From contig CALIJJ010000019.1 of the NCBI GenBank assembly GCA_938017515.1, forward strand, positions 1,415-65,414: DNA of 64,000 bases, written 5' to 3'. Below, piece by piece: positions 3,022 through 51,800 of the stretch (positions within the stretch are counted from its first letter, which is position 1; every line of letters begins with the position of its first letter). The translations under genes and the position numbers were made by a program. The notes under the pieces are model-generated. The model made no database searches. It was given only the letters and a program-made list of their open reading frames with translations, and was not told the DNA's origin. The stretch is from an uncultured Pseudanabaenaceae cyanobacterium (lineage in GTDB: Bacteria > Cyanobacteriota > Cyanobacteriia > PCC-9006 > JAAUQQ01).

Positions 3022-3346
3022 GGATGTTGAAAAATGAAATGATTATGAAACCAGTATAAAACAGGAAAATGAAAGAAATATGAAAAGTGTCTGAATGTTT
3101 CAGAGGGCGATTCAGGGCATCCAGGAAGTGGAAGGGCAGAATCTATGCGCTCTTGCCGACGGAAAATAAATCACTCTTGAGAGCGAATTTCCGGATTGGC
3201 TACCCGCTGTAGCCGTTTATATATGGGAGATTGGAGACCAAGGCGCAATCATAACCATGCAGTGCATCTTGTCGAGAAAGTGGGAACGCTAGACCTAGAT
3301 ACCGAACAAGATTCTGGGTCACATCTCCATCTGCTCACATCATTTT

Positions 3347-4558
3347 TTGAAGGTCTGTATGCAGACATCGAGTCGAACAAAAATTGCCGTACTCTACCCT
3401 GCGTTTCTGGGCGGTGGAGCTGAGGCCGTCGGCCTCTGGATTTTGGAGGCCCTCAAGGACCAGTACGAGGTGACCCTGTTCACCGTGGCGGGCGTGGACT
3501 TCGATCGCCTCAATGCGATGTACGGCACCCATCTCAGCGACGAAACAATTAAAACGGAGTCGCTGTTCTCTGGCAAACGTGCTGCGTTTGTCAATTCCTG
3601 CATTGCCAACAACTGGCATATCAGGATGGTGTTGTTCCACACGCTAATCCGTCGTCTCAAGGCCCAGCGCCACGATTTTGCCACCTGTGTCTCGGCCTAC
3701 AACGCCGTGGACTTTGGTGATAAGGGCATTAACTACATCCACTGGATTAATGTTCTCGACAGCAGCAAGTTCTACAATCTGCTCTCCGATACCAAGCCCG
3801 AGCGGGTCAAGAACTACTGCAACCTGGCCAACTCCAAGATGGTGGCCGAGCGTATTGAAGGGGCCTATAAGACCACGCCGGATGTGCTGTATCCCCCAGT
3901 TGTCATCGATGTGCAGGATGTTCCCTGGGACGAGAAGGAATATGCCTTTATTTGCAGCGGTCGTCTGACGCTGCCCAAGGAACCCCACAAGGTGATTGAA
4001 ATTCTGGGACGGGTGCGCGATCGCGGCCACAAGATCAAACTCCACATGACCGCAGGCGGCGGCGGTGTCTACGCCTGGAAGTACCGCAACCGCATTCGCG
4101 AGATGGTGGCTGAGCGGTCCGACTGGATTACGCTCCACGAGAATCTCAGCTACGCCGACTACACCGATGTGTTGTCCAAGTGTCAGTTCGGGATTCATTA
4201 CAAGACGGAGCCCTTTGGCATCTCCATCGCCGAGATGATTAAAGCCGGCGCTGTTCCCTTTGTACGCAGCTTTGGTGGCCAGGTGGAAATCGTGGGCGAG
4301 GACAACAAGGAGTTGTTCTTCTACGACCCTGACGAAGCCGTCGAAAAGATTTGCTTCGTTCTGGAAAACGAGCCCCTGCAAGTGCAGATGCGTGAGGCGA
4401 TGGTCGCCCAGAAGACCTTGTTCTCCACCGAGCGGTTCATGAACGAGTTCCAGCAGGTTGTTGCCGAGCATCTCGATCCAAGCTTATCCAGCAAGGATTC
4501 AGAGGAAAGTGCTGAAGCATCCCCAGCCTCCGAGCCGTCTGTACCCGTTGGCGTTTAG
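3347..4558 (+). CDS. glycosyltransferase family 4 (GT-B, group 1)
   Basis: 403 aa. N-terminus KIAVLYPAFLGGGAEAV plus a C-terminal GT1-like domain. Acidic Ser/Pro-rich tail. Confidence 0.65.
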   Translation: MKVCMQTSSRTKIAVLYPAFLGGGAEAVGLWILEALKDQYEVTLFTVAGVDFDRLNAMYGTHLSDETIKTESLFSGKRAAFVNSCIANNWHIRMVLFHTLIRRLKAQRHDFATCVSAYNAVDFGDKGINYIHWINVLDSSKFYNLLSDTKPERVKNYCNLANSKMVAERIEGAYKTTPDVLYPPVVIDVQDVPWDEKEYAFICSGRLTLPKEPHKVIEILGRVRDRGHKIKLHMTAGGGGVYAWKYRNRIREMVAERSDWITLHENLSYADYTDVLSKCQFGIHYKTEPFGISIAEMIKAGAVPFVRSFGGQVEIVGEDNKELFFYDPDEAVEKICFVLENEPLQVQMREAMVAQKTLFSTERFMNEFQQVVAEHLDPSLSSKDSEESAEASPASEPSVPVGV

Positions 4559-4639
4559 CACCTTGGCCTTGGTCGCGCTCTAAAGTTCCCCGGCCAAACG
4601 TTCCCTGTCTAACTTTATCCATCTAATCCCAGCTCTTCC

Positions 4640-5578
4640 ATGAAGCTCTTCTTTTACCGCCGTAGCGACGACAAGCCCAACTACGGTGACGAACTCAACC
4701 TCTGGCTCTGGGATCAAATCATTCCCGATATTCTGGACGAAGATGAGTCCACTGCATTCTTCGGCATCGGTACCCTGTTGAACAACCTGGTGAAAGAGCG
4801 GGCTCCGAACGCCAAGCAAATTGTCGCCCTTGGAACCGGGGCAGGCTACAACAAAGGCATGCCCGACATTGACGAAACCTGGAAGATCTACTGTCTACGG
4901 GGTCCTATCTCTGCCCTGAAGCTGGGCGTTGATCCCAAGCTTGCCATTACCGATGGCGCTGCGCTGCTCAGTCGTCTCTACAAGCCCACCGGCGTCAAGC
5001 GCTATAAGTTCTCCTACATTCCTCACTTCACCCAGTCGATCATCGCAAACGATGATTGGCAGGAAATCTGTGACGAGTTGGGCATTCACTACATTGATGC
5101 TCGCCGCCCGATCCACGAAATCATCAAGGAAATTGGGGAAACCGAGGTACTGCTGGCCGAAGCCATGCACGGCGCTATCACCGCAGACACCCTGCGCACC
5201 CCTTGGATTCCGGTCCTGACCAGCCAGTGGCTCCTACCCTCCAAGTGGCTTGACTGGACCATGTCCCTCAACATGGAATTCCAACCCCATCCTGTGACGG
5301 GCTTAGATCCCATTGAAGAGCGTTACTTGCTGAAGAACCTACGCGGCATCAAGGGCAGCCGTACGCTGGTGAAGAAAGCCGCCGCGCGCTGGATTAAAAA
5401 GAAGCAAGCCAAGATGAAGATGGAGAGCATCATGAAATATGGTGTGCCTCAGCTCAGCGACGACACCCTGTTTGAAAGCAAGGTGTGCCAGCTCGAAGAA
5501 AAGGTTGAGGAATTCAAAAAAGACGTGGCATCCGGCATGTTCGCCAGTAAGGACAAGGAAACTGCAATGACGGTCTAA
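4640..5578 (+). CDS. polysaccharide pyruvyl transferase, ExoV-like
   Basis: 312 aa. N-terminal motif KPNYGDELNLWLW matches the NFGDxLNxWLW motif of ExoV/pyruvyl transferase family proteins. Confidence 0.55.
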   Translation: MKLFFYRRSDDKPNYGDELNLWLWDQIIPDILDEDESTAFFGIGTLLNNLVKERAPNAKQIVALGTGAGYNKGMPDIDETWKIYCLRGPISALKLGVDPKLAITDGAALLSRLYKPTGVKRYKFSYIPHFTQSIIANDDWQEICDELGIHYIDARRPIHEIIKEIGETEVLLAEAMHGAITADTLRTPWIPVLTSQWLLPSKWLDWTMSLNMEFQPHPVTGLDPIEERYLLKNLRGIKGSRTLVKKAAARWIKKKQAKMKMESIMKYGVPQLSDDTLFESKVCQLEEKVEEFKKDVASGMFASKDKETAMTV

Positions 5579-5839
5579 ACGCCTGTCAACAGCACAGTGC
5601 TGGAGGGATAGACTTCATTCCTCCGATGCAGTGGCTAGGATTCCAATCAGACAGGATGGGGCATTCAGGAGAGTGCCCCATCCTGCATTGAATCGCAGTT
5701 TTGATTAGCTGTTGAGACTGACTGTGCTGTTGAAACCGACTGTGATGTTGAGACCGACCTGTGCCGCTGAACCCTGAGTTGCTGCTGATACCCGCTTGGA
5801 CAAACGCGGTTTGTCTTTACCCAATCGTTTTTTACTCCC

Positions 5840-6784
5840 ATGAAACTGATTCTGTTGCTGTTGGGCCTTGGCCTGTTGCTATCGTTGCTGGCTGAACTGG
5901 TTTTGCGTGTGGCCTTTGGTTTTGGCAATCCGCCGCTGTACCAGGGTGACGATCGTATTGGCTACCTGCTCCAGCCCAATCAACAGGTCAAGCGTTTCGG
6001 CAATCGGATTCACATCAATCAGTATCATCAGCGCACGGAGGCGATCGCCCCCACCCCTGCCGAAGGCACTCGCCGCGTTTTTATCATTGGGGATTCCATT
6101 GTCAACGGTAATTGGTGGACGGATCAAGCCGATGTCCTGTCAGAGGTTGTGAAGGGTCTGCTCAACCAAGCCAACCCCCAGGTCTCCCACGAGGTACTGA
6201 ACGCCTCCGCCAACTCCTGGGGACCGCGCAATGAGCTGGCCTATTTAGAGCGATTTGGGATGTTCGGGGCGGAGACGTTGGTATTGGTGATTAACACCGA
6301 TGATTTATTTGCAGTGGAGCCCACAGCCGTGCCCGTGGGACGCGATCGCAATTATCCCAACCGTCGCCCCGCCTCCGCCCTCAGCGAAATCTTTAGCCGC
6401 TATCTCCGTCGCTCAAAGCCCGACCCTGTGCTGGAAGCCTCCCGGCAGGAAGAGGGCGATCGCGTCCAGCGCAACTTAGAGGCCATTGCCAAGATTCAGG
6501 CAATGGCCCAAGCCAACGATACCCGCTTCCTCATGGTCATGACGCCCCTGAAGCGAGAGCTAGAGGTGAATGGTGGCCCGCTTGACTACGAAATTCAGGA
6601 ACGTCAGCGTCTGGCAGACTTTGTTCAAACTCAGCTCATCCCCTTTGTCGATGTGTTGCCGATTCTGAACCAAGAAATTGCCACAAAAAATGTCCCGGCA
6701 GAAGGACTCTACCGGGACCATATTCATCTGAGTGTTTTAGGGAACGAGATTCTGAGCCGTAGGATTGCAGACAAGTTACTGTGA
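5840..6784 (+). CDS. SGNH/GDSL hydrolase family protein with an N-terminal membrane anchor or signal
   Basis: 314 aa. Hydrophobic N-terminus and a GDSL block VFIIGDSIVNGNWW. Its context suggests a polysaccharide O-acyl esterase or transferase role. Confidence 0.6.
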   Translation: MKLILLLLGLGLLLSLLAELVLRVAFGFGNPPLYQGDDRIGYLLQPNQQVKRFGNRIHINQYHQRTEAIAPTPAEGTRRVFIIGDSIVNGNWWTDQADVLSEVVKGLLNQANPQVSHEVLNASANSWGPRNELAYLERFGMFGAETLVLVINTDDLFAVEPTAVPVGRDRNYPNRRPASALSEIFSRYLRRSKPDPVLEASRQEEGDRVQRNLEAIAKIQAMAQANDTRFLMVMTPLKRELEVNGGPLDYEIQERQRLADFVQTQLIPFVDVLPILNQEIATKNVPAEGLYRDHIHLSVLGNEILSRRIADKLL

Positions 6785-29756: not shown

Positions 29757-29920
29757 CCAAATAGTCTCGCTAGATATCAAGACTATTTGGCTAAGGGGCG
29801 AATCGATGGCCTGTCGCCTGGGGCAAAGCGAAAGTGTATTCACGTATTCTGCCAAGGGCAGCTGTTGGAAGATACGTGGATGCGCCAGGGTTATTTGAAG
29901 ATGCTGTGGGCAATATAAGT

Positions 29921-30053
29921 TCAGCCAAGAGGAAAGCAGACTAGAGAGTTCTGCACAGCGAGCCTAGCTCGCTTGCGAGTCTCTAAGAAGCTAACTGTCC
30001 TTGCAGGTAATTCGCTTAGCTCCGGGGGCTTTAGTGGGCTAGGCGATTTCTTA
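29921..30053 (+). ncRNA. candidate small RNA, copy 1 of a paralogous pair
   Basis: ORF-free region. A TATAAG -10-like hexamer sits just upstream. Conserved 5' block cagccaagaggaaagca. Conserved single-stranded block aagaagctaactgtccttgcaggt. Terminal hairpin tcgcttagc...gctaggcga followed by a T-run. Confidence 0.4.
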
Positions 30054-30158
30054 ATTATCAGGTATGAGTCGCTCCAACTTTACCTGATGGTGATTTAGCT
30101 CCAGTCAGAACCAAGGGTGTTTTCTTGGACTGAGCTAGTCACCACCTCTCAACTCAGC

Positions 30159-30195
30159 AAAAAGGCTGCGACTCAATTGAGTCGCAGCCTTTTTG
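30159..30195. terminator. bidirectional rho-independent terminator
   Basis: aaaaaggctgcgactcaattgagtcgcagccttttt. Perfect 13 bp stem with A and T flanks. Confidence 0.7.
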
Positions 30196-30488
30196 TTTTG
30201 TCTTTGCTGATTGAGATATCTTTGCTGATTGAGATATTCAGGGACTGACGATACTCAAAGTTTTCAATGTCCCCATGCACTTCACGGCTTAGAAGTTACC
30301 GTAAGCCATCAAAAAGGAGGGATCCAGGAAACATCTGTAAAGGATGTATCAAATAACATGGCATAGAAACGGCTGGAAAATTCTCTCGCTCCGATCTTTC
30401 AGTAGATCAACGAATCTTGACAAACAAAGAATTTTCAAGATACGTAGAAGCGCGATGGCTGTACTCCACTGCAATTGACACAATGGTA

Positions 30489-30612
30489 TCAGCCAAGAGG
30501 AAAGCAACTCAGCAGGCCACAGACTTCATGTCTGCGACCTCTCTGAGAAGCTAACTGTCCTTGCAGGTGACTCGCCTGACTCTGGGGGCTTTATAGGGTC
30601 AGGCGATTTTTT
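30489..30612 (+). ncRNA. candidate small RNA, copy 2 of a paralogous pair
   Basis: Same 5' block and same central block as copy 1. Terminal hairpin tcgcctgac...gtcaggcga with compensatory base changes relative to copy 1, followed by tttttt. Confidence 0.4.
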
Positions 30613-30977
30613 CACACAGGCAGTCTCTAATAGAATACAGCTACTCGGCATTAATACGTATCAAATAATCTTTAATTAGAGATATTTTATACAAGATCAG
30701 CTTATCCTTTCAATCAATATTGGATTGCTATCCCTGGTTGTTCTGCTGATTCGCGCTCATTCTTCCTCGATCGAGATAATTTCTCGTTAATTCGAGAGAG
30801 GCTCTAAAGAATGTGTGTTGAAAAATACAAAATGAATTTTTTTCCACTTTTGGAACGGAGTCTCTCATGGGTATGGGAGGCTCCTTTTGGGTTTAAGTTT
30901 GGGTTTAGATTTGGGTTTAGATATTGATGGGGTCTGGGATGTGACTTTGTCTGACCTAGGCTTTTATCCCAGATAGC

Positions 30978-31008
30978 AAAAAGCGGTGGGGAAGCACCAC
31001 CGCTTTTT
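30978..31008 (-). terminator. rho-independent terminator downstream of bamA (bidirectional form)
   Basis: aaaaagcggtggggaagcaccaccgcttttt. Confidence 0.7.
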
Positions 31009-31055
31009 GCTGTCTGGCCAGATATTGTTTGGCCAGATGTTGTTTAGGTGATGTT

Positions 31056-41369: not shown

Positions 41370-41990
41370 TTGACGGATAAGCATTGGAGACCAGGAACCT
41401 TTGCCGTGATCGAAGCCACCAGTGCTACGCAAATTATTGAAGGCTATGCCCAGGGCTATTTCCTGATGGCGGATGAGGATGAGGGTGGGCTTGGATGGTA
41501 TACCAGTCGCAAGCGCGCCATTATCCCCCTGGATGATCGTTTTCGGCACCCAAAATCCCTACGGCGTGTGCTCAATCAAAAGCGCTTTGACGTCGCCATT
41601 AACCGGGATTTCCCGGCGGTTTTGGAGGGATGTGCGAATCGTGAAACCACTTGGATCTCTGAAGACTTGAAGGAGATCTATCGACTGCTCCACCGCGAAG
41701 GATGGGCCCATAGCTTTGAAACCTGGGAGGGCGATCGCCTGGCGGGGGCAATCCTTGGCATTGTCATTGGCGGTGCTTTTATGGGGGAGTCGATGTTTTT
41801 CAACATCCCCGAGGGCTCGAAGGTTGCCATGGTAGAGCTAGTGAACCGGTTGCGGGCGCAGGATTTTGTGTTGTTTGATGCGCAGATGCAAAATCCCCAT
41901 TTGGAGCGCTTTGGGGCCTATGTGATTGGCGATCGCGAGTATGAGGTGTTGTTGAGAGAGGCGATCGCCCGAGACTGCACCCTTAGATAG
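41370..41990 (+). CDS. aat: leucyl/phenylalanyl-tRNA--protein transferase
   Basis: L/F-transferase blocks (IIEGYAQGYF, WISEDLKEIY, GESMFF). The start codon is uncertain. Confidence 0.7.
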   Translation: MTDKHWRPGTFAVIEATSATQIIEGYAQGYFLMADEDEGGLGWYTSRKRAIIPLDDRFRHPKSLRRVLNQKRFDVAINRDFPAVLEGCANRETTWISEDLKEIYRLLHREGWAHSFETWEGDRLAGAILGIVIGGAFMGESMFFNIPEGSKVAMVELVNRLRAQDFVLFDAQMQNPHLERFGAYVIGDREYEVLLREAIARDCTLR

Positions 41991-42169
41991 GGATTGCACA
42001 CCGAGATAAGGGAGAAGTCGAACATTGAGTACTCTTGGTCTGAACTCCGATATGACTCAATAGAATTCTGATGGGCCTTTCGTCTGTTTGTAGAAACTCT
42101 AAAAGCTATGATTTTTTAGAGCTCTAAAAGCTATGATTGGTACCTCAATATTAAATTCGGTGAGCTCCT

Positions 42170-43039
42170 ATGGAATCTTATATTACCTATAATGTTGGGG
42201 GCTATGATCTGGCATTTCCATCAGATCATATGATGCCGCGATATCAAGAAAAGTGGCGCCGATACGATACAGCACTTGCTTATATCGGGCAGATAGTTTT
42301 TTCCAAATATCCTGGCTCTTCTGCAATTGATATTGGAGCCAATGTTGGCGATAGTGCAGCATTGATTCAGCAATATCAAAAGGTGCCAACCTTGTGCATT
42401 GAAGGTAACCCTGAATTTATTCAATATTTAGAACATAACGCTTCTGTTATTGAAAATATCGAGATTGAAGACTCTTTTCTCGGCAAAGATGGAGAAAAAA
42501 TATCTTTGGAACACATGCGTAGTGAAGGAGGTACTGCTTCCGTGACTAACGCTGTAGAGAAAGATGGATTCTTTGTGTCGTATGCAAAAAGTTTGGAGTC
42601 AATTCTAGACCATAGACCATTCTTCAATAAATCAAAGCTACTGAAAATTGATACTGACGGCTTTGACTTTCTTATTATTCAAGCCTCTCATGAATTTATT
42701 CGAAAGAGCCAGCCAGTAATCTTTTTTGAGTATGATATTACGTTCTCACAATCAGGAATTCTTGAAGCAAAAGAAGCTATAGAGCTGTTGATTCGTGTTG
42801 GATATAAGCGATTTATCTTCTATGATAATTTTGGAAACTATTGCATGAGCTTTAGTGATAGTCAGTTAGAAATTCTAGAAGACCTTAACAGATTCTTGTT
42901 CTCTAATCGATTTTTGAGTGGTACACCTTCTATCTACTACTATGATGTTTGTGCATTCTCGCAGGAGGATGAAGAGCTATTCACTGCTGTTAGAGTGTTA
43001 GAGTCAGAAGCAACTGATCAATGGCTGAAAGCACAATAG
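42170..43039 (+). CDS. FkbM family methyltransferase
   Basis: 289 aa. The IDIGANVGDSA motif is typical of the FkbM methyltransferase domain. Strongly AT-rich coding sequence. Confidence 0.65.
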   Translation: MESYITYNVGGYDLAFPSDHMMPRYQEKWRRYDTALAYIGQIVFSKYPGSSAIDIGANVGDSAALIQQYQKVPTLCIEGNPEFIQYLEHNASVIENIEIEDSFLGKDGEKISLEHMRSEGGTASVTNAVEKDGFFVSYAKSLESILDHRPFFNKSKLLKIDTDGFDFLIIQASHEFIRKSQPVIFFEYDITFSQSGILEAKEAIELLIRVGYKRFIFYDNFGNYCMSFSDSQLEILEDLNRFLFSNRFLSGTPSIYYYDVCAFSQEDEELFTAVRVLESEATDQWLKAQ

Positions 43040-43224
43040 CTCTGCATAATCGTTGGCTATTTCCAGTTTCAGCAAGGCTGTTTGAATAAGGAGGGCATAC
43101 ACCACGTGAGCGAAGGTAGATATCTTTAGCTTAGAAAGATAGTAGAAAATATTTCCTTATTTGCACTCGATTACTGTCCTGAAAACGGTTGTGTCCTCTA
43201 AGATGTGTACGAAAAAAATGTAAT

Positions 43225-44028
43225 CTATGCTCCGTAGCCTGCATCTAAATACTCTTGGACTTCATCTAAAGAATTACAATATTTCCCAATAATCTGATAT
43301 TTTTTTTCATTTGGGGCACGTTCACAAAGGCTCAGATAGGAACGCTCACCAGCCCAGCCATTAAAACAAACTCGAAGATGAAGTGCCGCAGTATCTTCGA
43401 GCAGATCCGGAAGGTTAGAAAAGAAGTTTTGATAGAATTTTAGATAGCGGCTCTCACATAGATAGGCTTTGTTAAATCCCAAGGCTACACAATGAATTTT
43501 CGGGTTTGCACGAAGATAATCAAACATCGCATGGGTGCAGCATGCATGAGGCACGCTAAAAATATCATCTAAGACAATTAAGCCAAAGGGGGCGAGGCAC
43601 CGAAAGGATAGCTCTAAATCTGAATAGACAGCATCATAGCTATGCTCACCATCAATATGAGCATAGCGAACCTGTGGAATATGGTCGCCAAAAAAATGTG
43701 AGTCATTTTTTGCTACAAAACGAGAATCATATTGAAAATAGTTGAGCTTTTTAGGCTCAATCTGTGAGAACTCGATGACCCTAGCACTAACTGCATTAGT
43801 GTCTGCATAGGGATCGATCAACAAGCATCGTTCATCATCATCAAGAGCTGCTGCTAGTAGCGCTGCTGTGTAGCCATATAAGACTCCTATCTCCAGAATA
43901 TCCCCCTGTACTTGATGAAAACACTGATAACCCAGAAGTTGATCAAAAATATGGAGATTCCAATCTCCAAGCAAGGCATTTGGGAATGATTGCTTGAATT
44001 TGCTCGTAAGATTTGTTTCAGTAGACAT
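43225..44028 (-). CDS. class I SAM-dependent methyltransferase (TylF/MycF-like O-methyltransferase fold)
   Basis: 267 aa. EIGVLYGYTAALLA glycine-rich SAM loop and the IDGEHSYDAV block. AT-rich. Confidence 0.55.
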   Translation of the reverse strand: MSTETNLTSKFKQSFPNALLGDWNLHIFDQLLGYQCFHQVQGDILEIGVLYGYTAALLAAALDDDERCLLIDPYADTNAVSARVIEFSQIEPKKLNYFQYDSRFVAKNDSHFFGDHIPQVRYAHIDGEHSYDAVYSDLELSFRCLAPFGLIVLDDIFSVPHACCTHAMFDYLRANPKIHCVALGFNKAYLCESRYLKFYQNFFSNLPDLLEDTAALHLRVCFNGWAGERSYLSLCERAPNEKKYQIIGKYCNSLDEVQEYLDAGYGA

Positions 44029-44085
44029 TTCTGAGGATTTTATAAATGACTTGACGGGATTTTAAGGAAAATATGTCTGAGATAT

Positions 44086-45249
44086 TTAGAGCATATTAAC
44101 TAAAAACTTTTCAACATCCGCTGTCGCTTTTTCTTGGCTAAATCGGGAGCAGGCATTTTCCTGTCCACGCAGAGCGACACTCCTCCATATTTCCTTGTCT
44201 TTGGAAATTGAAGCAAGAACATTAGACAGGTCAATGGGGTCTTCTGGCTCAAAGAAAAAACCATCTTCACCATGAGAGTTGACAATTTCCTTTGCTCCTC
44301 CCGTTCCACTGGTTACGAGTGTTAACCCGGCTGCCATTGCCTCAATTTGGCTTATTCCAAAAGGCTCATCGAAGCGTGAAGGAAATACAAGAATATTGTG
44401 GCTTCTGTAGAGTGCCACTAGCTCTTTTCTTGAAAGGGCACCCACCAGTTTTACTTTTTTACTCAGGCCTTCTGACTCAAGAAATGATTGAATTTCATCT
44501 ACATATCCTGGTACGAATGTCCCTCCAGCAATTGTCGCATTAAATTCAACCTCATTCGAATGGAGTAAGTATAGTGCTTCTATCAAGATGTCAATTCCCT
44601 TGTAGGGAGCAACGAGACTCGCGTAGGCAATATTGAGATGTGCCTGATCAGGTATATTTTTAGAATAAAAATCGTCAACACAAGCACCTGGATAGATTGT
44701 TTTTGCACCAGTCATTGGATATTTAGTGGATGCTAGATTATAGCGAATCCAATCGCTACAGGTGATGTATCTAAATTTTGAGTTCCTTGGGGCTGATTGC
44801 CAGCTATATCCTGGTTGAGCATTCATGACGTAATGAGCCGTCGGAATATTGTGCTCTAATATTTTGTGGAGTAATGATGCATCGAATTGAAGCAGGTCAA
44901 TATTTCCTACTAGACAAACATCTGGATGGAATTGCTCAATTGTCTCTTCAATCGCAGAAAGATTATGAAGATTACTAGATTGAATTGTCTCAGTTTCAAA
45001 TAGTTGTGTTCCTTGCTCAGACCACTTCCCAAATAATTTTAGTTCTCTAGAGATAGGTGGATCTGAGAAATTTTGATCATATGGTGCGTATAAGTAGTCT
45101 GCATCACCACACAAAACCTTAACTTCATGCCCCTCCTTTTGGAGGATGCGCCCAAAGTCGGCCATCGATCGCTCATATCCCCCCAATGATTGAGGAGGAT
45201 ATAAGTTATTAATCAGTAATATTTTTAGCTTAGAATTTTGAGGCATCAT
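44086..45249 (-). CDS. glycosyltransferase family 4 (GT-B)
   Basis: 387 aa. N-terminus KILLINNLYPPQSLGGYER and a C-terminal EX7E-like region (FPSRFDEPFGISQIEAMAAG). AT-rich. Confidence 0.7.
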   Translation of the reverse strand: MMPQNSKLKILLINNLYPPQSLGGYERSMADFGRILQKEGHEVKVLCGDADYLYAPYDQNFSDPPISRELKLFGKWSEQGTQLFETETIQSSNLHNLSAIEETIEQFHPDVCLVGNIDLLQFDASLLHKILEHNIPTAHYVMNAQPGYSWQSAPRNSKFRYITCSDWIRYNLASTKYPMTGAKTIYPGACVDDFYSKNIPDQAHLNIAYASLVAPYKGIDILIEALYLLHSNEVEFNATIAGGTFVPGYVDEIQSFLESEGLSKKVKLVGALSRKELVALYRSHNILVFPSRFDEPFGISQIEAMAAGLTLVTSGTGGAKEIVNSHGEDGFFFEPEDPIDLSNVLASISKDKEIWRSVALRGQENACSRFSQEKATADVEKFLVNML

Positions 45250-45264
45250 GTTAGTCGTTAAAAA

Positions 45265-47460
45265 CTATTTCTTGTCGCAGTAAATTTCCCACATTTTCAG
45301 GAATGCATTTTCCATCTCTTTGGTAAAGGCTAGGCTATTCCAAAGAGGCGCGGAGTGTTTGGAATATTTCAATCTCTGAGATATTTTTCTACGAAGTCCC
45401 CCGTCTGTTCCAAAACTTACTCCCCAATCGACATATTCTGCAAATGACGTAGCGACTCCTTCATGAATGCCTGCATTCCTTAAAAAAGTATAGCCATTAC
45501 GGGACGAAAACTGACGACCCATCTGAGTCACAATGGGAATCTCCATCCACATAGCTTCTAAATTTGTCGTGGCTCCGTTGTAGGGATATGTGTCAAGAAT
45601 CACGTCTGCTATGCTTAAGTTGGCTCGATGGGTGAGCTCTGAATTGTCCCTGTCCAGAAAGCGTAATCTCTCGGGCGACACATTTGATTTTCTGGCAATA
45701 GTCTCGAACAATGACCGTACAGCTCCTCGGTGACCTAATCCTTTTACCAATAGATAACTATTCGGAACTTGCCTAAGTATATCTATCTGTGCCTGAACAA
45801 CATCTGTATTGAGCTTAATGGCATTCTGCATGGTTAGGTAGACGACTGAATCCTCTGGTATACCGAGTTTTTGACGTTTTATGCTAGGAACGCCAACTTC
45901 AAAACCGTCAACCGCAAGGTACACGTCTGATAGTCGCCAAATCTTTTCCTTGTACCAGGCTTCGGCTTCCTCTGGTAGGACGTTTGGATCTGCTATGAAA
46001 TAGTCAATAGTCGGCAATTCAGATGCATCAAAGCCTAGCCAAGTCACCTGTATTGGAGCAGGCTTAAGGCTCAATACGGCACTACTAACATCTAAAGTTA
46101 AACTATCCAAGTCAATAAGAATATCAATTTCGTCTTCGTAAATTTTCTGGGCAATCTCCCTAGAATTCACACCGACTGCATAAAAGCATGAGACATAGGG
46201 GACGAAAAAGCGATTTGCAAAAGTAAGATTGTCACTTTGTGTTATGAAATATGCGTATGTTTCGAAGCGTTCTCGATCATGATTTTGGATTAACCACCTC
46301 GATAACCAGCCGACTGAATGATTGTTGAAACAATGAGATAGATAGCCAATTTTGATTTTACTGTTGCTTCTCCTTTTTTTTTCTACTCTGGCTTTTTGAT
46401 GTTGAAAACGTGTTGATTCTGGGAAAACTTTATCGCAGCAACTTTGAGATAGTTCTCGTTGATATCGTCGGATTAACCTTGGGTTGTCTGATGTATATTG
46501 AAGTATAGATGGAGAATTAAGAAGTAGCCATATTAAGTCGTTGTCTGCTGATTTAGAAGGATTTTTCTTTAGGAAACCATCGAGATTATTCTTGTGCGCA
46601 GAAACTAATTCATCAAGCTTGTCCCATTCTAAGCAGGATTCCTTCGAAAGGCGTAGGCGCAAGTAGCTTCCCAATAAAGATGCTTCCTCTGTCGAAGCTA
46701 GCTGACAGAAATTTTCTACGCGAACGATCGCTTTCTCAAATAAATTCTCATGCTTGTAAAAAGAAACAAGGTTGATCAGAATCTTGTGATTGCCAGGAAG
46801 GGCGTCGTAAAGTTGTTCTGATACGGCAATAGCTAATGGATAGTTAAAATGAAAATGTCCAACTTTGATAATAATGGGCATCAATTCATCAGCTAATAAG
46901 CCATGTTGCTGCCTGCTAAGTCTTGAGGTGAGGGCGCATATGATGCGGCCAAAATCAGTTGCATCGGGCTGTAGCTTTAACACCGCCGAAAATAGCTGAA
47001 CTAATCTAGGAGCATCATCTTCAGTAATATTCTCTTGTTGCAGAGTTCGCTCTATCTTTAGATATAGTTCATCATTAGATTCCGTTAAATCTAGCTCTAA
47101 AGATAGCCTTAGTAAGGCTAAAAGATTATATGGGTTGACTGGTCCAAATTCTCGAATATATTGACGTAAGCTCCAAGCGCGCAAAAAATCTTCTCTCTCC
47201 TCATGTTGATTTGCTGCACGGCTTAGAATGGTGGCGAATACTTGAGATTGAGCCTCTGTCTCTTCCTCTGGAACTTGAGACATGCCCAGTATCCAGATTG
47301 TTTGAGCCTCATCTTCGTTACTTGTTAAAAGGGCTGCTGTGCCAGCATACCAATAGTTTGTGAGGCATTGATCTTCTGCTTCAATTAGTTGCCTATAGAT
47401 AGCAAGGCTGTCTAAATAACGACCTTCATCAAAAGCAGTTTTTGCTAATTCTTGGTTCAT
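45265..47460 (-). CDS. TPR-repeat protein fused to a GT41 (O-GlcNAc-transferase-like) glycosyltransferase domain, paralog B
   Basis: 731 aa. The helical N-terminal half is repeat-like. The C-terminal half carries the blocks IGYLSHCFNNHSVGWL, DILIDLDSLT, LVKGLG and DTYPYNGATTNLEAMWMEIPIVT. AT-rich. Confidence 0.65.
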   Translation of the reverse strand: MNQELAKTAFDEGRYLDSLAIYRQLIEAEDQCLTNYWYAGTAALLTSNEDEAQTIWILGMSQVPEEETEAQSQVFATILSRAANQHEEREDFLRAWSLRQYIREFGPVNPYNLLALLRLSLELDLTESNDELYLKIERTLQQENITEDDAPRLVQLFSAVLKLQPDATDFGRIICALTSRLSRQQHGLLADELMPIIIKVGHFHFNYPLAIAVSEQLYDALPGNHKILINLVSFYKHENLFEKAIVRVENFCQLASTEEASLLGSYLRLRLSKESCLEWDKLDELVSAHKNNLDGFLKKNPSKSADNDLIWLLLNSPSILQYTSDNPRLIRRYQRELSQSCCDKVFPESTRFQHQKARVEKKRRSNSKIKIGYLSHCFNNHSVGWLSRWLIQNHDRERFETYAYFITQSDNLTFANRFFVPYVSCFYAVGVNSREIAQKIYEDEIDILIDLDSLTLDVSSAVLSLKPAPIQVTWLGFDASELPTIDYFIADPNVLPEEAEAWYKEKIWRLSDVYLAVDGFEVGVPSIKRQKLGIPEDSVVYLTMQNAIKLNTDVVQAQIDILRQVPNSYLLVKGLGHRGAVRSLFETIARKSNVSPERLRFLDRDNSELTHRANLSIADVILDTYPYNGATTNLEAMWMEIPIVTQMGRQFSSRNGYTFLRNAGIHEGVATSFAEYVDWGVSFGTDGGLRRKISQRLKYSKHSAPLWNSLAFTKEMENAFLKMWEIYCDKK

Positions 47461-47474
47461 TGCTTTTGTGATTC

Positions 47475-49667
47475 TTATAAAGACTTACTATTACTATGAG
47501 ACTGCCACATCGCGAGATAGGCACTTTCCATGTCTTGTGTAAACTGTCTTGCATTCCACAGCGGAGCAGAACGCTTCGACTGTTTTAATTTCCAGGCAAT
47601 GTCATCTCTTAGTTCTTTATCAAGTCCAAGACGGATTCCCCAATCGACATATTCTTCATTAGACCAAGCAATTCCTTCCTTAACTCCTGCATTCTTCAGC
47701 ATTGTGTAGCTATTTCGAGCCGAAAATTGTTGTCCCACCTTTGTTACAATGGGTCGTTCCATCCAAAGAGCTTCCATTGTTGTAGTTGCTCCATTATAAG
47801 GATAAGTGTCGAGGACAATGTCTGATACAGATAGGTTGCCACGATGAATCTCTGATGATGAATCAATTCCGAGAAAAATAATTTTTTCTCGGGCAATATC
47901 CATATCCTTCGCAATGTCAGTAATGTATTGCTTGAGCATTTCTGTTGCACCCAATCCTTTGATCAGGAAGTAGCTATTGGGTACAGCCTTAATGATTTCT
48001 AATTGAAGCTTTAGCATCTCTGGATTTCGCTTCATCCCATTCTGAGCACTGAAATACAGAATAGAATCTTTTTCTAGGCCGAGACTTTTTCTAGATAACG
48101 TGGGTGGTGCGACCTCAAAACCATCTATTGCGACATAGGTAGACGGGAGGCGAAATATTTTTTCTGAATAGTAGCTGTCAGCATCTTCCGGAAGAACATA
48201 AGGATCAGCAATGTAGTAATCTATGCTTGGAATTCCAGATGCATCCCACCCTAGCCATGTTGCCTGAATTGGTGCGGGCCTAGAGCATAGAACTTCACAG
48301 CTTATGTCAAAGGTAATGCTGTCCAAGTCAATCAAAATGTCAATCTTATCTTGCATTATTTGATTGGAAATTTGGTTGGCACTATCAAGGCCAAATCGAT
48401 GAGCTGTATCTGAGCTTTGCTCATACCAATCTTGGATTGGATCGCTTCGTTCCAAGGCATTAACAAAATAAGTGAAAATTTCGAATTTCTCATGATCGCG
48501 ATTGTTGAATAAGGAACGAGCTAGCCAGCCAACAGAATGTCTTCTGAGACAAGATGATAGATATCCAATCCGCAGTCGATTTGACGGATTAATTTCAATG
48601 CTCTGAGGTGGATTGAAGTGGTCCATCTCCCTTTTGCAAAATGATCCTATTGCGTTAATGTAGTCTCGATTAGACTCTGGAGAATCTTCTAGGTAAGGTA
48701 ATACAAAACCACCTGAAAAAAGCCAAGAAACACTTGCCTTTCTTAGAGCTGAATCGCTATTGTTTAGTAGTTTAGAAAGAAATTGTTTATAATTTTTAGC
48801 TTCTTCCTGTGCCGCATCCCAGGCACTTCCTGATTGAATGTATGTTTTGATTAGTATATAACTGCAAACAACGTTCTCAACTAATGTTTTGGATAGCTCA
48901 CAAGATGACTTAGCTAGGGAAATGGCTGCATCAAAATCTCCAATGGATATTTTGACTGTGATGATGAGCCTTAGAAGATCAAGATGATCAGGCCTATAGG
49001 AGTAACAAAGATCTAGTAGGCGGAGTGCTCTTAGTGGTAGGCGGTGAGCATAATAAATAGTGAGTGAAGCATCGAGGATTGTGTCTAGAAAAAGAGAATC
49101 ACTGGTAAAAATGCGTGCACAAATCTCTGATAGTTCATAGGTGAGATCTAGAAGAGGAAACTGCTGAAGAGATATCTTCAATGTCTCTATTAATGTTTCT
49201 CGGTAGTCCTCCAGCACATTTATTTCAATGCTTTCAGATAGTTCAGATAATGTTTTTGATAATTCTAAAGATTGGTAAAAATCAGCTGTCAATAGATTGA
49301 GTTGATGGGAGAGCCGGAAGGCTTCTAACTTGTTCTGTAAGTCAGACTCATTGAACTGCTGGGCATGACAACGAAGTAACCAAGCATGCTCTAAGGAGTC
49401 TTGTTCTTCTTGGCGTATTGCTTCTTTGTTGAGAAGCCTGAATATATCTAAAGACCATTGTTCAACCTGTTCATCTGAAGCTTCATAGAGTTGAGACATC
49501 CAAGCCAGTTGCGCTGTCTCTTCGTTGCCCTCTAGTAGTTGAGCAATACCGAGCAACCATACGAAGGTGACTTTTCCAGTCTCTTCAAAATTCTCCTGGC
49601 AGAACTCTGCGATTTGAGCATATTCTCCCTGTGCAAACAAGGAGTCGAGTTCTTCTAGGGATGTCAT
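47475..49667 (-). CDS. TPR-repeat protein fused to a GT41 (O-GlcNAc-transferase-like) glycosyltransferase domain, paralog A
   Basis: 730 aa. The C-terminal half is collinear with paralog B (IGYLSSCLRRHSVGWL, DILIDLDSIT, LIKGLG, DTYPYNGATTTMEALWMERPIVT). The N-terminal half is divergent. AT-rich. Confidence 0.65.
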   Translation of the reverse strand: MTSLEELDSLFAQGEYAQIAEFCQENFEETGKVTFVWLLGIAQLLEGNEETAQLAWMSQLYEASDEQVEQWSLDIFRLLNKEAIRQEEQDSLEHAWLLRCHAQQFNESDLQNKLEAFRLSHQLNLLTADFYQSLELSKTLSELSESIEINVLEDYRETLIETLKISLQQFPLLDLTYELSEICARIFTSDSLFLDTILDASLTIYYAHRLPLRALRLLDLCYSYRPDHLDLLRLIITVKISIGDFDAAISLAKSSCELSKTLVENVVCSYILIKTYIQSGSAWDAAQEEAKNYKQFLSKLLNNSDSALRKASVSWLFSGGFVLPYLEDSPESNRDYINAIGSFCKREMDHFNPPQSIEINPSNRLRIGYLSSCLRRHSVGWLARSLFNNRDHEKFEIFTYFVNALERSDPIQDWYEQSSDTAHRFGLDSANQISNQIMQDKIDILIDLDSITFDISCEVLCSRPAPIQATWLGWDASGIPSIDYYIADPYVLPEDADSYYSEKIFRLPSTYVAIDGFEVAPPTLSRKSLGLEKDSILYFSAQNGMKRNPEMLKLQLEIIKAVPNSYFLIKGLGATEMLKQYITDIAKDMDIAREKIIFLGIDSSSEIHRGNLSVSDIVLDTYPYNGATTTMEALWMERPIVTKVGQQFSARNSYTMLKNAGVKEGIAWSNEEYVDWGIRLGLDKELRDDIAWKLKQSKRSAPLWNARQFTQDMESAYLAMWQSHSNSKSL

Positions 49668-49779
49668 GTCATACAGAAGTGCTTCAGCTTTTATATTCTA
49701 TGCAATTTTCATACTGCGAAGGTAAAATTTATTGCTCCTTGTATTTCTGTGTTCATTATGAACTGGCCTAAAATCAGAA

Positions 49780-49813
49780 AACGGCAACCCGATGAATATC
49801 TCAGGTTGCCGTT
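49780..49813 (-). terminator. hairpin terminator downstream of the pilin gene
   Basis: aacggcaacc-cgatgaatatctca-ggttgccgtt. Perfect 10 bp stem. The minus strand continues into a T-rich tract. Confidence 0.55.
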
Positions 49814-49865
49814 TGCCTATTAGGACTGTCGTCTATCAGCAATGCTAGATAGGGGCTGTCAGAGT

Positions 49866-50420
49866 TTAGGTTGCATCGTTCAGGGCCTTGGAGCCATTTG
49901 GGCAGGCCATTACAGTCGTTTGAGCTGCAGCTGCATCGAAACCTGTTGCAACAACCGCAACTGCACCAGTAGCAGCGACGTTTGCTTCGCAGAGAATACC
50001 TGCAGCCGTTGCGTCAACTTCAGTGGACTCTTGATACAGTTGAACTGCACCGCGGTATGCTTTCACAGAAGAGTCTCTGCTTGTAGAGTTGATTTGAGCA
50101 CCGCCAGCGCCTGTCGATTCAATGGTGTAGGTGTAGTACTCAGTTTGAGTCGGTACGCCAATGCCGAGTTCACCAAAGCTAGAACCAAACTGACGATTGT
50201 CTAGGCGATGAGCCTGCTGGGCACGGTTTACAGAACCAGTGTAGGTCTTAGCCTCAGACTGACGCGCCTTTGCTGCTTGGTTGAGGAAAGAAGGCAGGGC
50301 GATGGCAGACAGAATACCGATGATGATGATAACCACCAACAGTTCGATTAGGGTGAAGCCGCCTTCTTCCTTCTTATTGAGAAGGTGGCTCAGAAACTTA
50401 GCTTTAAATTCGTTCTTCAT
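49866..50420 (-). CDS. pilA: type IV major pilin, PilA1-like
   Basis: Prepilin leader MKNEFKAKFLSHLLNKKEEGG then FTLIELLVVIIIIGILSAIALPSF. This is very close to the Synechocystis PilA1 N-terminus. The C-terminal region has two Cys (a D-region disulfide) and is Ser/Thr/Ala-rich. Confidence 0.85.
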   Translation of the reverse strand: MKNEFKAKFLSHLLNKKEEGGFTLIELLVVIIIIGILSAIALPSFLNQAAKARQSEAKTYTGSVNRAQQAHRLDNRQFGSSFGELGIGVPTQTEYYTYTIESTGAGGAQINSTSRDSSVKAYRGAVQLYQESTEVDATAAGILCEANVAATGAVAVVATGFDAAAAQTTVMACPNGSKALNDAT

Positions 50421-50620
50421 TTGGGTTGTCTCTCCTAGAGGGTTGAAACGCGATGTATCATCTAGCTCCTAAATACAACTTACCCACCCCTTTTGGCTTT
50501 CATATCAACCAGCCTCTAGATTTACTTACTTTTGTCAAAGAGTAACGGGGAGGGAGAGGTAAGGCCTCTCAGAACAACCCTTGCAAGGGTAATTGACTAG
50601 ACAGTCTGTTTGGGTGAGCG

Positions 50621-50665
50621 CTACACGATAGATATATGGGAGCTACACAATATATATGTGGGATA
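50621..50665. promoter_or_regulatory. tandem 22-nt direct repeat in the pilA upstream region
   Basis: gctacacgatagatatatggg followed by gctacacaatatatatgtggg, about 200 nt upstream of the pilA start on the minus strand. Confidence 0.35.
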
Positions 50666-50740
50666 CGTCGGAAGACATCTCGGGATATCTCAGAATCCGT
50701 AGCGCCGTCTGCACCCAGAAAACAATAAAACTCCCCTGGT

Positions 50741-50769
50741 CTCTGATAGACCAGGGGAGCTCTGCGATC
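50741..50769 (-). terminator. rho-independent terminator downstream of the 115 aa gene
   Basis: ctcccctggtct-ctgat-agaccaggggag. A T-rich tract follows on the minus strand. Confidence 0.6.
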
Positions 50770-50783
50770 CAGAATGCCTAATT

Positions 50784-51131
50784 TCAGGGGTCTGAATTCT
50801 TCGTATCTGAGTTTCGAGCTTCAGCTTGTTCTTCGGTTGGGTGCAGTAAAGCCTCCAAACGTTCTTTGGACCAAGAGTCAATGGGATAGGAGAAGGCAAC
50901 AATCTCTGATAACCGGATGAGCCAGACGGCGCGTTCGCAGAGGGCACTATCGTCCGTATCATCTACAAATAGACAGAGAATCTCGACGAATTCGGAGTCA
51001 AGGTGGACAGGGACGCCGTAAAAATTGCTGCTGGCGAGGCGGATGCGAACTTCAGTGCCTTGCTGCAATGCTTCCTGAAGTCGTTTCCGCAGTAGGTCCG
51101 AGATGCTAGCAGACTGTTTGGCCTGGGTCAT
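50784..51131 (-). CDS. hypothetical small protein with an Sm-fold-like segment
   Basis: 115 aa. The central segment EVRIRLASSNFYGVPVHLDSEFVEILCLFVDD has the alternating beta pattern of Sm/LSm domains. This is weak inference. Confidence 0.4.
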   Translation of the reverse strand: MTQAKQSASISDLLRKRLQEALQQGTEVRIRLASSNFYGVPVHLDSEFVEILCLFVDDTDDSALCERAVWLIRLSEIVAFSYPIDSWSKERLEALLHPTEEQAEARNSDTKNSDP

Positions 51132-51434
51132 GTGAAGCGTTCTCCTACGGCTTGCAGGTCAGGTTTAGAGCCGCGCTCCAGAACGAATGGTCATGGGAGC
51201 CCTATTTCAGTTTGATGCTTGTGAAATGTAACAACCCACTGATAGTGCTCGGTATTGGCAGCTCTATTCACCCATGTTAGCGATTGATGCTGGCATTGTG
51301 GTTTTCTACGGAGCTACGCAGAGCTCTATTTTGACGATAAAGCCAGGAAATCTCTGATTTCTGTCTTGGGATGGAGTGTTCAATTGATGCTACAGGATGT
51401 AGTATTTAAGGGTAGCTAGAGTTCCATTGGGAGC

Positions 51435-51800
51435 GTGACTGTTCTAATGATTGCCACTGCCAAGATTGCCGCTTCTAAAAAGACGCCCACCACAGAAATG
51501 CAGGTCACCAGTATTCGTCTGGAGACGGATTTGAAGGAGCGCTTGAAGGGGTTGTCGGGCAATCAGGGCTACCAGAGTTTGATTCGCGATATTCTCTGGG
51601 ACTATGTGGAGCGCAATGAGCGGGGGCAGTCGCATCAGTTAGCTGTGACAGACCTACGGGCAACAATCCCCGCGACGGCTCAGCGGGATGAGGTTTGTGC
51701 GATTACGGGGGAGGCGATCGCCCTCCACTCCCCAATGTTCCTTGGATTAACACTCTCGGGGCAATTTGTGCCGATTGGCGTTGACAGCGTTTCTAAGTAG
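51435..51800 (+). CDS. hypothetical protein, possibly an RHH-type DNA-binding protein
   Basis: 121 aa. TSIRLETDLKERLKGL resembles a ribbon-helix-helix N-terminal strand followed by a helix. Weak. Confidence 0.4.
   Translation: MTVLMIATAKIAASKKTPTTEMQVTSIRLETDLKERLKGLSGNQGYQSLIRDILWDYVERNERGQSHQLAVTDLRATIPATAQRDEVCAITGEAIALHSPMFLGLTLSGQFVPIGVDSVSK

Follow-up and report, generated by a model that had tools for sequence, protein, structure and literature searches.

Type IV pili of cyanobacteria serve in motility, phototaxis, DNA uptake, flocculation and the control of biofilms. The question raised here is what a block of five sugar-modifying genes does beside a type IV pilin gene in an uncultured Pseudanabaenaceae cyanobacterium, and where the block came from. 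The stretch of DNA analysed, hereafter the window, comprises 64,000 nucleotides of contig CALIJJ010000019.1 (assembly GCA_938017515.1, positions 1,415 to 65,414). The block lies between the housekeeping gene aat and the pilin gene pilA, and its composition is foreign to the host. It is probably a pilA-linked cassette for the cytoplasmic, stepwise O-glycosylation of the type IV pilin, an expanded and horizontally replaced version of the pilA-ogt module. A preliminary description, made from the sequence, had proposed a system for the O-glycosylation and methylation of the pilin. The results support this proposal and none of the computations refutes it, but its novelty was overrated. Glycosylation of pilin by an adjacent enzyme of the GT41 family with tetratricopeptide repeats (TPR) is already established for cyanobacteria, as is the pairing of pilA with ogt.

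GC content, GC content at third codon positions (GC3) and counts of the HIP1 sequence (GCGATCGC) agree in setting apart a cassette at 41991..49850. Neither GC content nor HIP1 density is uniform across the window, and the low-GC, HIP1-free stretch was described correctly at the outset. The cassette has a GC content of 0.38 to 0.43. In 1-kb windows, the values from 42,001 to 50,000 are 0.376 to 0.427, and nearly all other sequence of the window falls at 0.50 to 0.59. The borders are sharp when viewed in 200-nt windows: GC content drops from 0.55 to 0.38 across 41,900 to 42,100 on the left, and rises from 0.42 to 0.52 across 49,700 to 49,900 on the right. GC3 is 0.32 to 0.37 in the five cassette genes and 0.54 to 0.69 in 12 flanking genes, with the pilin gene between them at 0.47. 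HIP1 occurs 63 times in the 64-kb window, compared to 1.35 copies expected from shuffled sequence, with three of the sites at 41,731 to 41,968 in the left flank. It is missing from 41,969 to 51,713, a gap of 9.75 kb; the second-largest gap is 2.9 kb. Given a density of 1.16 copies per kb outside the gap, 11.3 copies are expected within it (Poisson P of about 1e-5).

The cassette contains exactly five genes and no mobility genes. A gene for an FkbM-family S-adenosylmethionine (SAM) methyltransferase (42170..43039) is on the plus strand. The other four form a run on the minus strand, encoding from the pilin side two TPR-like GT41 proteins (GT41a, 47475..49667; GT41b, 45265..47460), a GT4 glycosyltransferase (44086..45249) and a Methyltransf_24 class I O-methyltransferase (MT24, 43225..44028), with gaps of 14, 15 and 57 nt, respectively. 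This gene set, the strands, the gaps and the position of the pilin gene upstream, beyond a terminator, are as given in the preliminary description. Housekeeping genes surround this block. On the left are purC, purD, aat and a gene for a histidine kinase; ilvD and upp lie to the right. The host-type left flank ends with aat itself (41370..41990, plus strand), which encodes leucyl/phenylalanyl-tRNA protein transferase (PF03588, E = 1.5e-58) and has a GC3 of 0.61.

The pilin gene (49866..50420, minus strand) encodes a PilA-type type IVa pilin of 184 aa that matches N_methyl (E = 2.5e-8) and Pilin_GH (E = 5e-24). The protein has the cleavage and methylation motif GG/FTLIELLVV, a hydrophobic N-terminal helix (Kyte-Doolittle hydropathy over 19 residues, KD(19), of 3.0) and two Cys within the last 45 residues. 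The GG/FTLIELL motif occurs once in the window, and this is the sole pilin gene in the 64 kb. From its 49 to 54% identity to pilins that precede ogtA-type genes in other genomes, we infer that it is the major pilin. The identification as a pilin was borne out, but the description of its C-terminal domain as Ser/Thr-rich was too strong: the globular part is Ala-rich (18% Ala) and, at 20% Ser plus Thr, only moderately rich in these residues. An intrinsic terminator (49779..49814, minus strand), comprised of a 14-bp stem with 7 GC pairs followed by a U-tract and also recovered as inverted repeat I1, divides pilA from the glycosylation run. GT41a starts 199 nt past the pilin stop on the same strand.

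The pilin-proximal GT41a (730 aa, minus strand; PF13844, E = 1e-48) holds the positional place of ogt or ogtA and is followed by GT41b (731 aa, minus strand; PF13844, E = 3e-46). The PF13844 scores of the two proteins are 158 and 166 bits, against a cut-off of 25. Searches with phmmer matched the GT41 proteins to human OGT (1e-46), Arabidopsis SPY (2e-41) and bacterial OGTs (1e-41 to 4e-30). GT41a K546 aligns with human OGT K842, and GT41a H377 with H498; the catalytic His and Lys columns are invariant in an alignment of 40 sequences (A2) that includes GT41b. The GT41 part of the TPR-GT41 fusions claimed earlier is therefore strong, but Pfam sees almost no TPR in them, with none in GT41a and a weak match in GT41b. 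Homologues that align over 98 to 100% of the length do carry Pfam TPR matches. The AlphaFold2 model of GT41a (predicted local distance difference test, pLDDT, 86.6; predicted template modelling score, pTM, 0.85) has 20 helices in residues 1 to 351, followed by a GT-B fold. With this model, Foldseek returned SPY (E = 3e-29) and OGTs as top matches, in a range of 1e-29 to 1e-25, with alignments to full-length SPY and OGT of 740 to 770 columns. It is only through the full-length homology and, for GT41a, the structure model that a TPR-like N-terminal solenoid is shown for these proteins.

The closest database homologues of both proteins are cyanobacterial proteins of about 736 aa annotated as O-GlcNAc transferase, SPINDLY family, at 42 to 44% identity to GT41a and 40 to 41% to GT41b. 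GT41a and GT41b are 36% identical overall, 22% in the N-terminal TPR part and 48% in the C-terminal catalytic part. A recent tandem duplication as the source of the pair was considered and rejected, because each protein is closer to distant homologues than to the other. Together with the GT41 of the nearest relative described below, each is 36 to 46% identical to everything, whereas OgtA-like members from different orders are mutually 48 to 62% identical. An attempt to assign the donor sugar from sequence or fold was abandoned as unsafe, since SPY and OGTs score alike.

The pairing of a pilin gene with a GT41 gene is not peculiar to the window. A gene for a full-length GT41 homologue lies 110 to 220 nt downstream of a Pilin_GH/N_methyl pilin gene, on the same strand, in all five independent loci for which upstream sequence was available: those of Mastigocladopsis, Leptolyngbya FACHB-671, a Nostoc, Microcoleus and the metagenome-assembled genome CRU_2_2 (L002, L003, L004, L096 and L013, respectively). 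It is the pilins of these five loci that are 49 to 54% identical to the window pilin. The homologous genes thus occur beside pilins and not at unrelated loci. Additional modification genes are common in this setting. In Leptolyngbya, an FkbM gene follows GT41. The Nostoc locus contains a second TPR-GT41, a Glycos_transf_1 protein and a TPR-TylF/Methyltransf_24 protein. The Microcoleus locus has the order pilA-GT41-GT4, with a GT41-GT4 gap of 14 nt, in addition to a second GT41 and a 1,438-aa FkbM/Methyltransf_24/TylF protein. The Leptolyngbya and Microcoleus cassettes have normal HIP1 density and near-host GC content, and the accessory genes beside pilA in Nostoc and Mastigocladopsis are 5 to 10 GC points below their flanks. 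Compared to these cassettes, the 15 to 18 point GC drop and the total lack of HIP1 in the window are exceptional.

Two further observations concern these comparison loci. A class I methyltransferase of 443 to 448 aa is encoded directly upstream of pilA in Leptolyngbya (L003, 5818-7155), Microcoleus (L096, 5573-6904) and CRU_2_2 (L013, 10729-12075). The three proteins are mutually 48 to 51% identical, and no counterpart was found anywhere in the 64-kb window. This methyltransferase could modify the pilin or its glycan, and the genome represented by the window could lack the gene or encode it elsewhere. Moreover, two Microcoleus assemblies (L095 and L096) differ: in one, pilA and the adjacent GT41 are split over frames and uncalled, and the 1,438-aa protein is shortened to 570 aa. 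The split genes are due either to pseudogenisation of a pilin glycosylation locus or to assembly errors.

The remaining three cassette genes encode putative later steps. The GT4 protein (minus strand; PF00534, E = 1e-28), of the retaining GT-B type, is predicted from its family to add a further sugar. Its homologues are 48 to 59% identical and are all cyanobacterial where named. Among the matches listed, about 20 of 120 are GT4-FkbM fusions of about 670 aa, and in others (about 568 aa) the GT4 is joined to Methyltransf_11. One locus (L094, 2916-4922) encodes a 668-aa GT4-FkbM fusion whose GT4 half is 53% identical, and whose C-terminal FkbM half is 52% identical, to the window proteins; it lies just upstream of the gene for a 335-aa Pilin_GH protein (5145-6152). 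Because the GT4 and FkbM proteins of the window both match halves of one pilin-adjacent fusion, the opposite-strand FkbM gene can be tied to the GT4 pathway. A GT4 homologue also directly follows GT41 in L093, as it does in Microcoleus. The FkbM protein (PF05050, 31 bits, cut-off 22.7; TIGR01444, 49.7 bits, cut-off 37.7) is predicted to be a sugar O-methyltransferase.

MT24 (267 aa, minus strand), the product of the last gene of the run, is CCoAOMT/TylF-like. It had been described as TylF-like: it is a clear Methyltransf_24 member (PF13578, E = 9e-15), but its TylF match is weak and below cut-off (E = 0.002), and its match to Methyltransf_3 is also weak. Distant matches are to plant and bacterial O-methyltransferases of the cation-dependent type. 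The closest metagenome relatives of MT24 (49 to 52% identical) are encoded beside TPR-GT41 genes on non-cyanobacterial contigs with a GC content of 0.68 to 0.70 (L097 and L099). In L097, the relative lies near genes for a 690-aa TPR-GT41, NeuB, a DegT-aminotransferase, a formyltransferase and a methyltransferase, which is the context of a flagellin-type protein-glycosylation island. A tblastn search with the window MT24 and FkbM against the Nostoc, Leptolyngbya and Microcoleus loci gave no significant match, despite the presence of the same Pfam families there. The accessory enzymes, with the exception of GT4 and the L094 fusion, are therefore analogous modules and not orthologues.

None of the five cassette proteins has a membrane-type hydrophobic segment (maximum KD(19) of 1.8 or less, compared to 3.0 for the pilin). 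Family searches among the five genes, all of which encode soluble proteins, detected no oligosaccharyltransferase, flippase or lipid-carrier initiating transferase, so an en-bloc periplasmic route of the PglL/TfpO type is excluded for the cassette genes. Likewise, no initiating phosphoglycosyl transferase, Wzx/Wzy, polymerase, ABC exporter or sugar-nucleotide synthesis gene is present in 41,991-49,850 or the adjacent genes.

The origin of the cassette was approached by comparison with the nearest relative. A scan anchored on Aat, using one genome per species from 80 species, revealed pilA near aat in only one, CRU_2_2, a metagenome-assembled genome named Synechococcales cyanobacterium; this was the sole locus informative for the cassette. 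The flanking proteins of CRU_2_2 are closely related to those of the window (Aat 87%, histidine kinase 80% and orf109 83% identical). The position aat...GT41-pilA is retained, but the interval is occupied by other genes. CRU_2_2 has a single GT41, which shares 42% identity with GT41a and 37% with GT41b, and its pilin shares 54% identity with that of the window. The interval also holds a methyltransferase fragment, in addition to the 448-aa methyltransferase upstream of the pilin. A blastn comparison revealed 78 to 84% DNA identity that ends at 41,978, the end of aat, and returns only at 50,212-50,486, which covers the 5' part of pilA and the leader. Since DNA homology breaks off at the end of aat and is regained only in the 5' part of pilA, the modification genes and the exposed region of the pilin change in concert, while the sequences that anchor them on either side are conserved. 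The cassette is variable, as had been suggested, with different genes at the same position in the nearest relative. The aat-GT41 interval of CRU_2_2 (2978-6405) further contains two genes of the Uma2 nuclease family, one of the PD-(D/E)XK transposase family and a toxin-antitoxin pair (PIN/DUF2281). The Microcoleus pilA cassette is likewise flanked by Uma2 genes, and the pilA loci of CRU_2_2 and Microcoleus seem to collect selfish elements.

Composition, the lack of HIP1 and the different content in one close relative favour replacement of the cassette by foreign DNA. The donor was probably a cyanobacterium with a GC content of about 40% and few HIP1 sites. Given that mobility genes are absent, homologous recombination is the probable route. 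Neither tRNA nor integrase nor transposase genes were found at the borders of the cassette, confirming the initial account, and a search for flanking direct or inverted repeats that could serve as att-like sites returned just chance-level short matches and one tandem pair. The latter is a perfect 17-nt direct repeat, CTCTAAAAGCTATGATT, at 42097..42113 and 42122..42138, spaced 25 nt start to start. The repeats stand exactly at the left border, 30 to 70 nt 5' of the FkbM start, and could be a regulatory site or a recombination scar.

Alternatively, the cassette may be an old resident, with local mutational bias, low expression and rapid diversifying evolution as the causes of its low GC content and missing HIP1. 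The missing integrase, tRNA and flanking repeats are in keeping with long residence, as is the aat...GT41-pilA position common to the window and CRU_2_2. The GT41 region of CRU_2_2 is likewise GC-poor (0.42 to 0.48) and HIP1-free, and the pilA accessory genes of Nostoc and Mastigocladopsis are also low in GC content. This explanation is nevertheless the less likely one. It does not readily account for a fall in GC3 of 25 to 30 points with borders sharp to about 100 nt, and the Leptolyngbya and Microcoleus cassettes hold HIP1 at normal density. Five genes in the window are opposed to one GT41 and nuclease- and toxin-type genes in the relative, and the GT41 proteins of the window are no closer to the GT41 of the relative than to those of distant orders.

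The function of GT41 proteins beside pilins has been studied in model strains. The ogt gene adjoins pilin genes in 77 of 201 (38%) cyanobacterial genomes (PMC9306852), and a 2025 review gives pilA-ogt adjacency as a general feature (PMC12288463). In Synechococcus elongatus, Ogt with its catalytic K445 is required for full-size, GlcNAc-lectin-reactive PilA and normal piliation, and the enzyme was judged cytoplasmic (PMC9306852). S. elongatus PCC 7942 Synpcc7942_0051, beside pilA 0048/0049, and Nostoc punctiforme OgtA (Npun_F0677) share with the window enzymes the TPR-like part, the GT41 domain and the catalytic Lys and His. In all of these systems, the enzyme lacks a signal peptide or membrane segment and its gene is directly beside the major pilin gene. 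The GT41 proteins of the window are full-length homologues of the Nostoc-type family of about 736 aa. The window is unlike the Ogt/OgtA systems in having two tandem GT41 genes, attached GT4 and two methyltransferase genes, and a composition foreign to the host. In Nostoc, pilA is SigF-dependent and ogtA is SigJ-dependent (PMC6495340); the terminator between the window pilin and GT41a fits such separate sigma-factor control.

It is conceivable, though quite unlikely, that the GT41 enzymes are cytoplasmic regulators similar to eukaryotic OGT, with targets such as pilus-assembly or signalling factors, that the pilin is affected only indirectly, and that adjacency reflects co-regulation. The S. 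elongatus ogt mutant is pleiotropic: it is affected in forming biofilms, in secreting the biofilm inhibitor and in responding to it (PMC9306852). N. punctiforme ogtA is needed for PilA accumulation, which is lowered by its loss, according to the citation of that work in PMC9306852. The window GT41 enzymes, without signal peptide or membrane segment, would have to reach a pilin whose globular domain is extracytoplasmic. Against a regulatory role, the K445-dependent size shift and the GlcNAc-lectin signal are found on PilA itself (PMC9306852). A GT41 that is only 42% identical between relatives whose flanking proteins are 80 to 87% identical varies faster than would be expected of a regulator. 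The company of GT4 and two O-methyltransferases would be unexpected, and so would the joint change of the variable part of pilA and the cassette.

It is very unlikely that the cassette acts on something other than the type IV pilin, be it another protein that is secreted or exposed on the surface (for example a CT-pilus-like or an S-layer protein) or a surface polysaccharide or lipopolysaccharide that becomes methylated. The preliminary description had allowed for another surface protein. In favour of such a target, O-antigen and exopolysaccharide (EPS) clusters commonly contain GT4, FkbM and TylF-like methyltransferase genes, the top NCBIfam matches of GT4 are EPS-type models, far below cut-offs, and an OGT and FkbM pair in Microcystis serves a non-type-IV pilus (PMC12397347). 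Against it, the cassette lacks the transferase, export, polymerase and sugar-nucleotide genes listed above, the pilin is the only candidate surface-protein gene near the cassette within the 64 kb, and a pilin gene directly precedes the GT41 homologue in all five independent loci.

The Microcystis case is also informative for methylation. The CT-pilus cluster of Microcystis aeruginosa (MrpC/BH695_0841, OGT BH695_0839 and FkbM BH695_0838) places a filament-subunit gene beside GT41 and FkbM genes, as in the window (PMC12397347). It differs in that the acceptor is a non-type-IV, beta-rich pilin and in that it lacks a second GT41, GT4 and Methyltransf_24. The Microcystis pilin bears ten O-linked monosaccharides of 160 and 174 Da, which the authors read as processed GlcNAc (PMC12397347). 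By our own arithmetic, which differs from that reading, these masses match those of mono- and di-O-methyl deoxyhexose. The rank of SPY as best Foldseek match to the GT41a model keeps a deoxyhexose donor possible for the window enzyme but does not show one. Based on the enzyme families, the GT4-methyltransferase fusions and the Microcystis CT pilus, methylation is expected to be on sugar and not on protein.

A cytoplasmic, stepwise O-glycosylation of the window pilin may proceed as follows. The pilin gene would be transcribed alone and end at its own terminator, and GT41a-GT41b-GT4-MT24 would be co-transcribed as an operon from a separate promoter within the 199-nt spacer, with the FkbM gene transcribed convergently. 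GT41a and GT41b may bind the prepilin through their strongly diverged TPR-like N-terminal domains and place the first sugar on Ser/Thr residues of the pilin C-terminal domain in the cytoplasm, before or during insertion by the secretory/signal recognition particle (Sec/SRP) route. The two enzymes could serve different sites or use different donor sugars. GT4 would add a second sugar, and Methyltransf_24 and FkbM would O-methylate the sugars. Such a pathway would need no flippase, lipid carrier or oligosaccharyltransferase, and its outcome would be a lineage-specific pilus glycoform. With regard to origin, the cassette and the variable 3' part of pilA may have been exchanged by recombination between aat and the conserved 5' part of pilA.

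Several known systems resemble the proposed cassette in part. Cytoplasmic glycosylation before export is known for HMW1C, itself a GT41, and for GtfA/B of serine-rich-repeat adhesins. Flagellin islands that encode TPR-glycosyltransferases, of which Caulobacter FlmG is an example, differ between strains and are frequently poor in GC. In these systems, soluble glycosyltransferases act in the cytoplasm, where they recognise a subunit of a filament or an adhesin and assemble the glycan on it one step at a time prior to export. The window differs from flagellin islands in that the acceptor would be a type IV pilin inserted via Sec/SRP and in that the cassette has no nonulosonic-acid synthesis genes. 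In the pilA-linked cassettes of Pseudomonas aeruginosa (tfpO/pilO) and with PglL of Neisseria and Acinetobacter, a membrane oligosaccharyltransferase moves a lipid-linked glycan en bloc in the periplasm. The window is unlike PglL/TfpO systems in that the cassette encodes no oligosaccharyltransferase, flippase or membrane protein. It is like the P. aeruginosa pilin-allele cassettes in that a variable pilin domain and modification genes are exchanged as a unit between conserved flanks, which yields strain-specific pilus surfaces; adjacency in other bacteria is cited in PMC9306852.

Some results weigh against a horizontally acquired pilin-glycosylation cassette. A donor search among 5.8 billion proteins found none more than 44% identical to either GT41 and none more than 59% identical to GT4. 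The search for an integrase, a transposase, a tRNA target and direct repeats revealed no mobility genes or border repeats. The pilA-adjacent clusters of Nostoc and Mastigocladopsis are GC-poor too, and the GC deficit could be partly a property of such genes. With respect to function, the donor sugar is not readable from sequence, and an O-fucosyltransferase (SPY) is found among the best structural matches alongside O-GlcNAc transferases. GT41a and GT41b are on long branches, at 36 to 44% identity to all known sequences, and may have changed in specificity. The cited papers link Ogt to PilA by genetics and not through sugar transfer by the purified enzyme, and the pilin effects in model strains could be indirect. 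Since the globular domain of the pilin finally lies in the extracytoplasmic space, a cytoplasmic enzyme would have to modify it ahead of export; for pilins, such an order of events is hypothetical.

The link between pilin and OGT, filament-glycosylation islands and the horizontal exchange of such islands are all known, and the cassette adds no new principle. What goes beyond the searched literature is the multi-enzyme extension around pilA, with a second GT41, GT4, FkbM and Methyltransf_24/TylF, which is widespread. The evidence from the GT4-FkbM fusion, the low identity (36%) between the two GT41 copies, and the replacement of the cassette jointly with the variable half of the pilin, also go beyond it. 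Pilus glycosylation affects assembly and biofilm behaviour (PMC9306852, PMC12288463), and the cited literature treats the pilA-adjacent Ogt as a single O-GlcNAc transferase. Taken with the comparison loci, the window points to Ogt as a frequent starting step of a larger pathway built of modules, and to replacement of the whole module, along with the exposed part of the pilin, between close relatives. Glycosylation of the window pilin, the identity of the sugar and its methylation are inferred here, and the locus raises the hypotheses that pilus glycans are methylated and contain more than one sugar, that GT41 paralogues differ in acceptor or donor, and that surface variation is under biotic selection. 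As a compact five-gene set, the locus is suited to heterologous reconstitution.

A bolder reading, which we put forward tentatively and consider somewhat doubtful, is that the pilA locus acts as a horizontally exchanged "glyco-serotype" cassette, in which a cytoplasmic pathway of several enzymes and the C-terminal, variable half of the pilin change hands as one unit, between the conserved 5' end of pilA and a neighbouring housekeeping gene. Under this reading, the pathway would comprise GT4, the two O-methyltransferases and a GT41 pair with different acceptor sites or donors, one possibly being a SPY-like O-deoxyhexosyl transferase and not an O-GlcNAc transferase, and the products would be lineage-specific methylated di- or oligosaccharides on the pilus. 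If true, cyanobacterial Ogt would only initiate a diverse and rapidly evolving code of pilin glycans, with pressure from phages or grazers as the probable driving force. The enzyme families that it would require are visible around pilA in Microcoleus, Nostoc and Leptolyngbya.

Finally, several minor features of the window were observed. A second compositional dip of about 1.2 kb (about 29860-31050, GC content 0.43) lies between the gene ending at 29,756 and an Omp85 gene; its longest open reading frame is at most 52 aa, it contains no HIP1 site, and an Rfam scan of 29.0-52.5 kb gave zero matches, the dip included. Upstream of the pilin gene, the minus strand at 50480-50500 reads GGGGTGGGTAAG, about 65 nt from the pilin ATG and inside the stretch conserved with the nearest relative; we take it to resemble the GGGTAA-type -12 element of cyanobacterial SigF-dependent pilA promoters. 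Contigs of the same strain from sibling assemblies (L001 and L006, 99.97 to 100% identical) end from both sides at 50,315-50,328, within the conserved N-terminal coding part of the pilin. As a source of strain variation these contigs yielded only this break, the sequence being otherwise that of the window. The break suggests, but does not prove, a repeat or allele branch in the assembly graph, and it also suggests another pilin allele or a paralogue in the community with this stretch in common. Directly upstream of the pilin is the gene for a conserved 115-aa protein (50784-51131) without a family match, which has a very strong terminator with a 16-bp stem (50727-50763). A 120-aa variant of this protein, with at least 90% identity, is present in a sibling sample.

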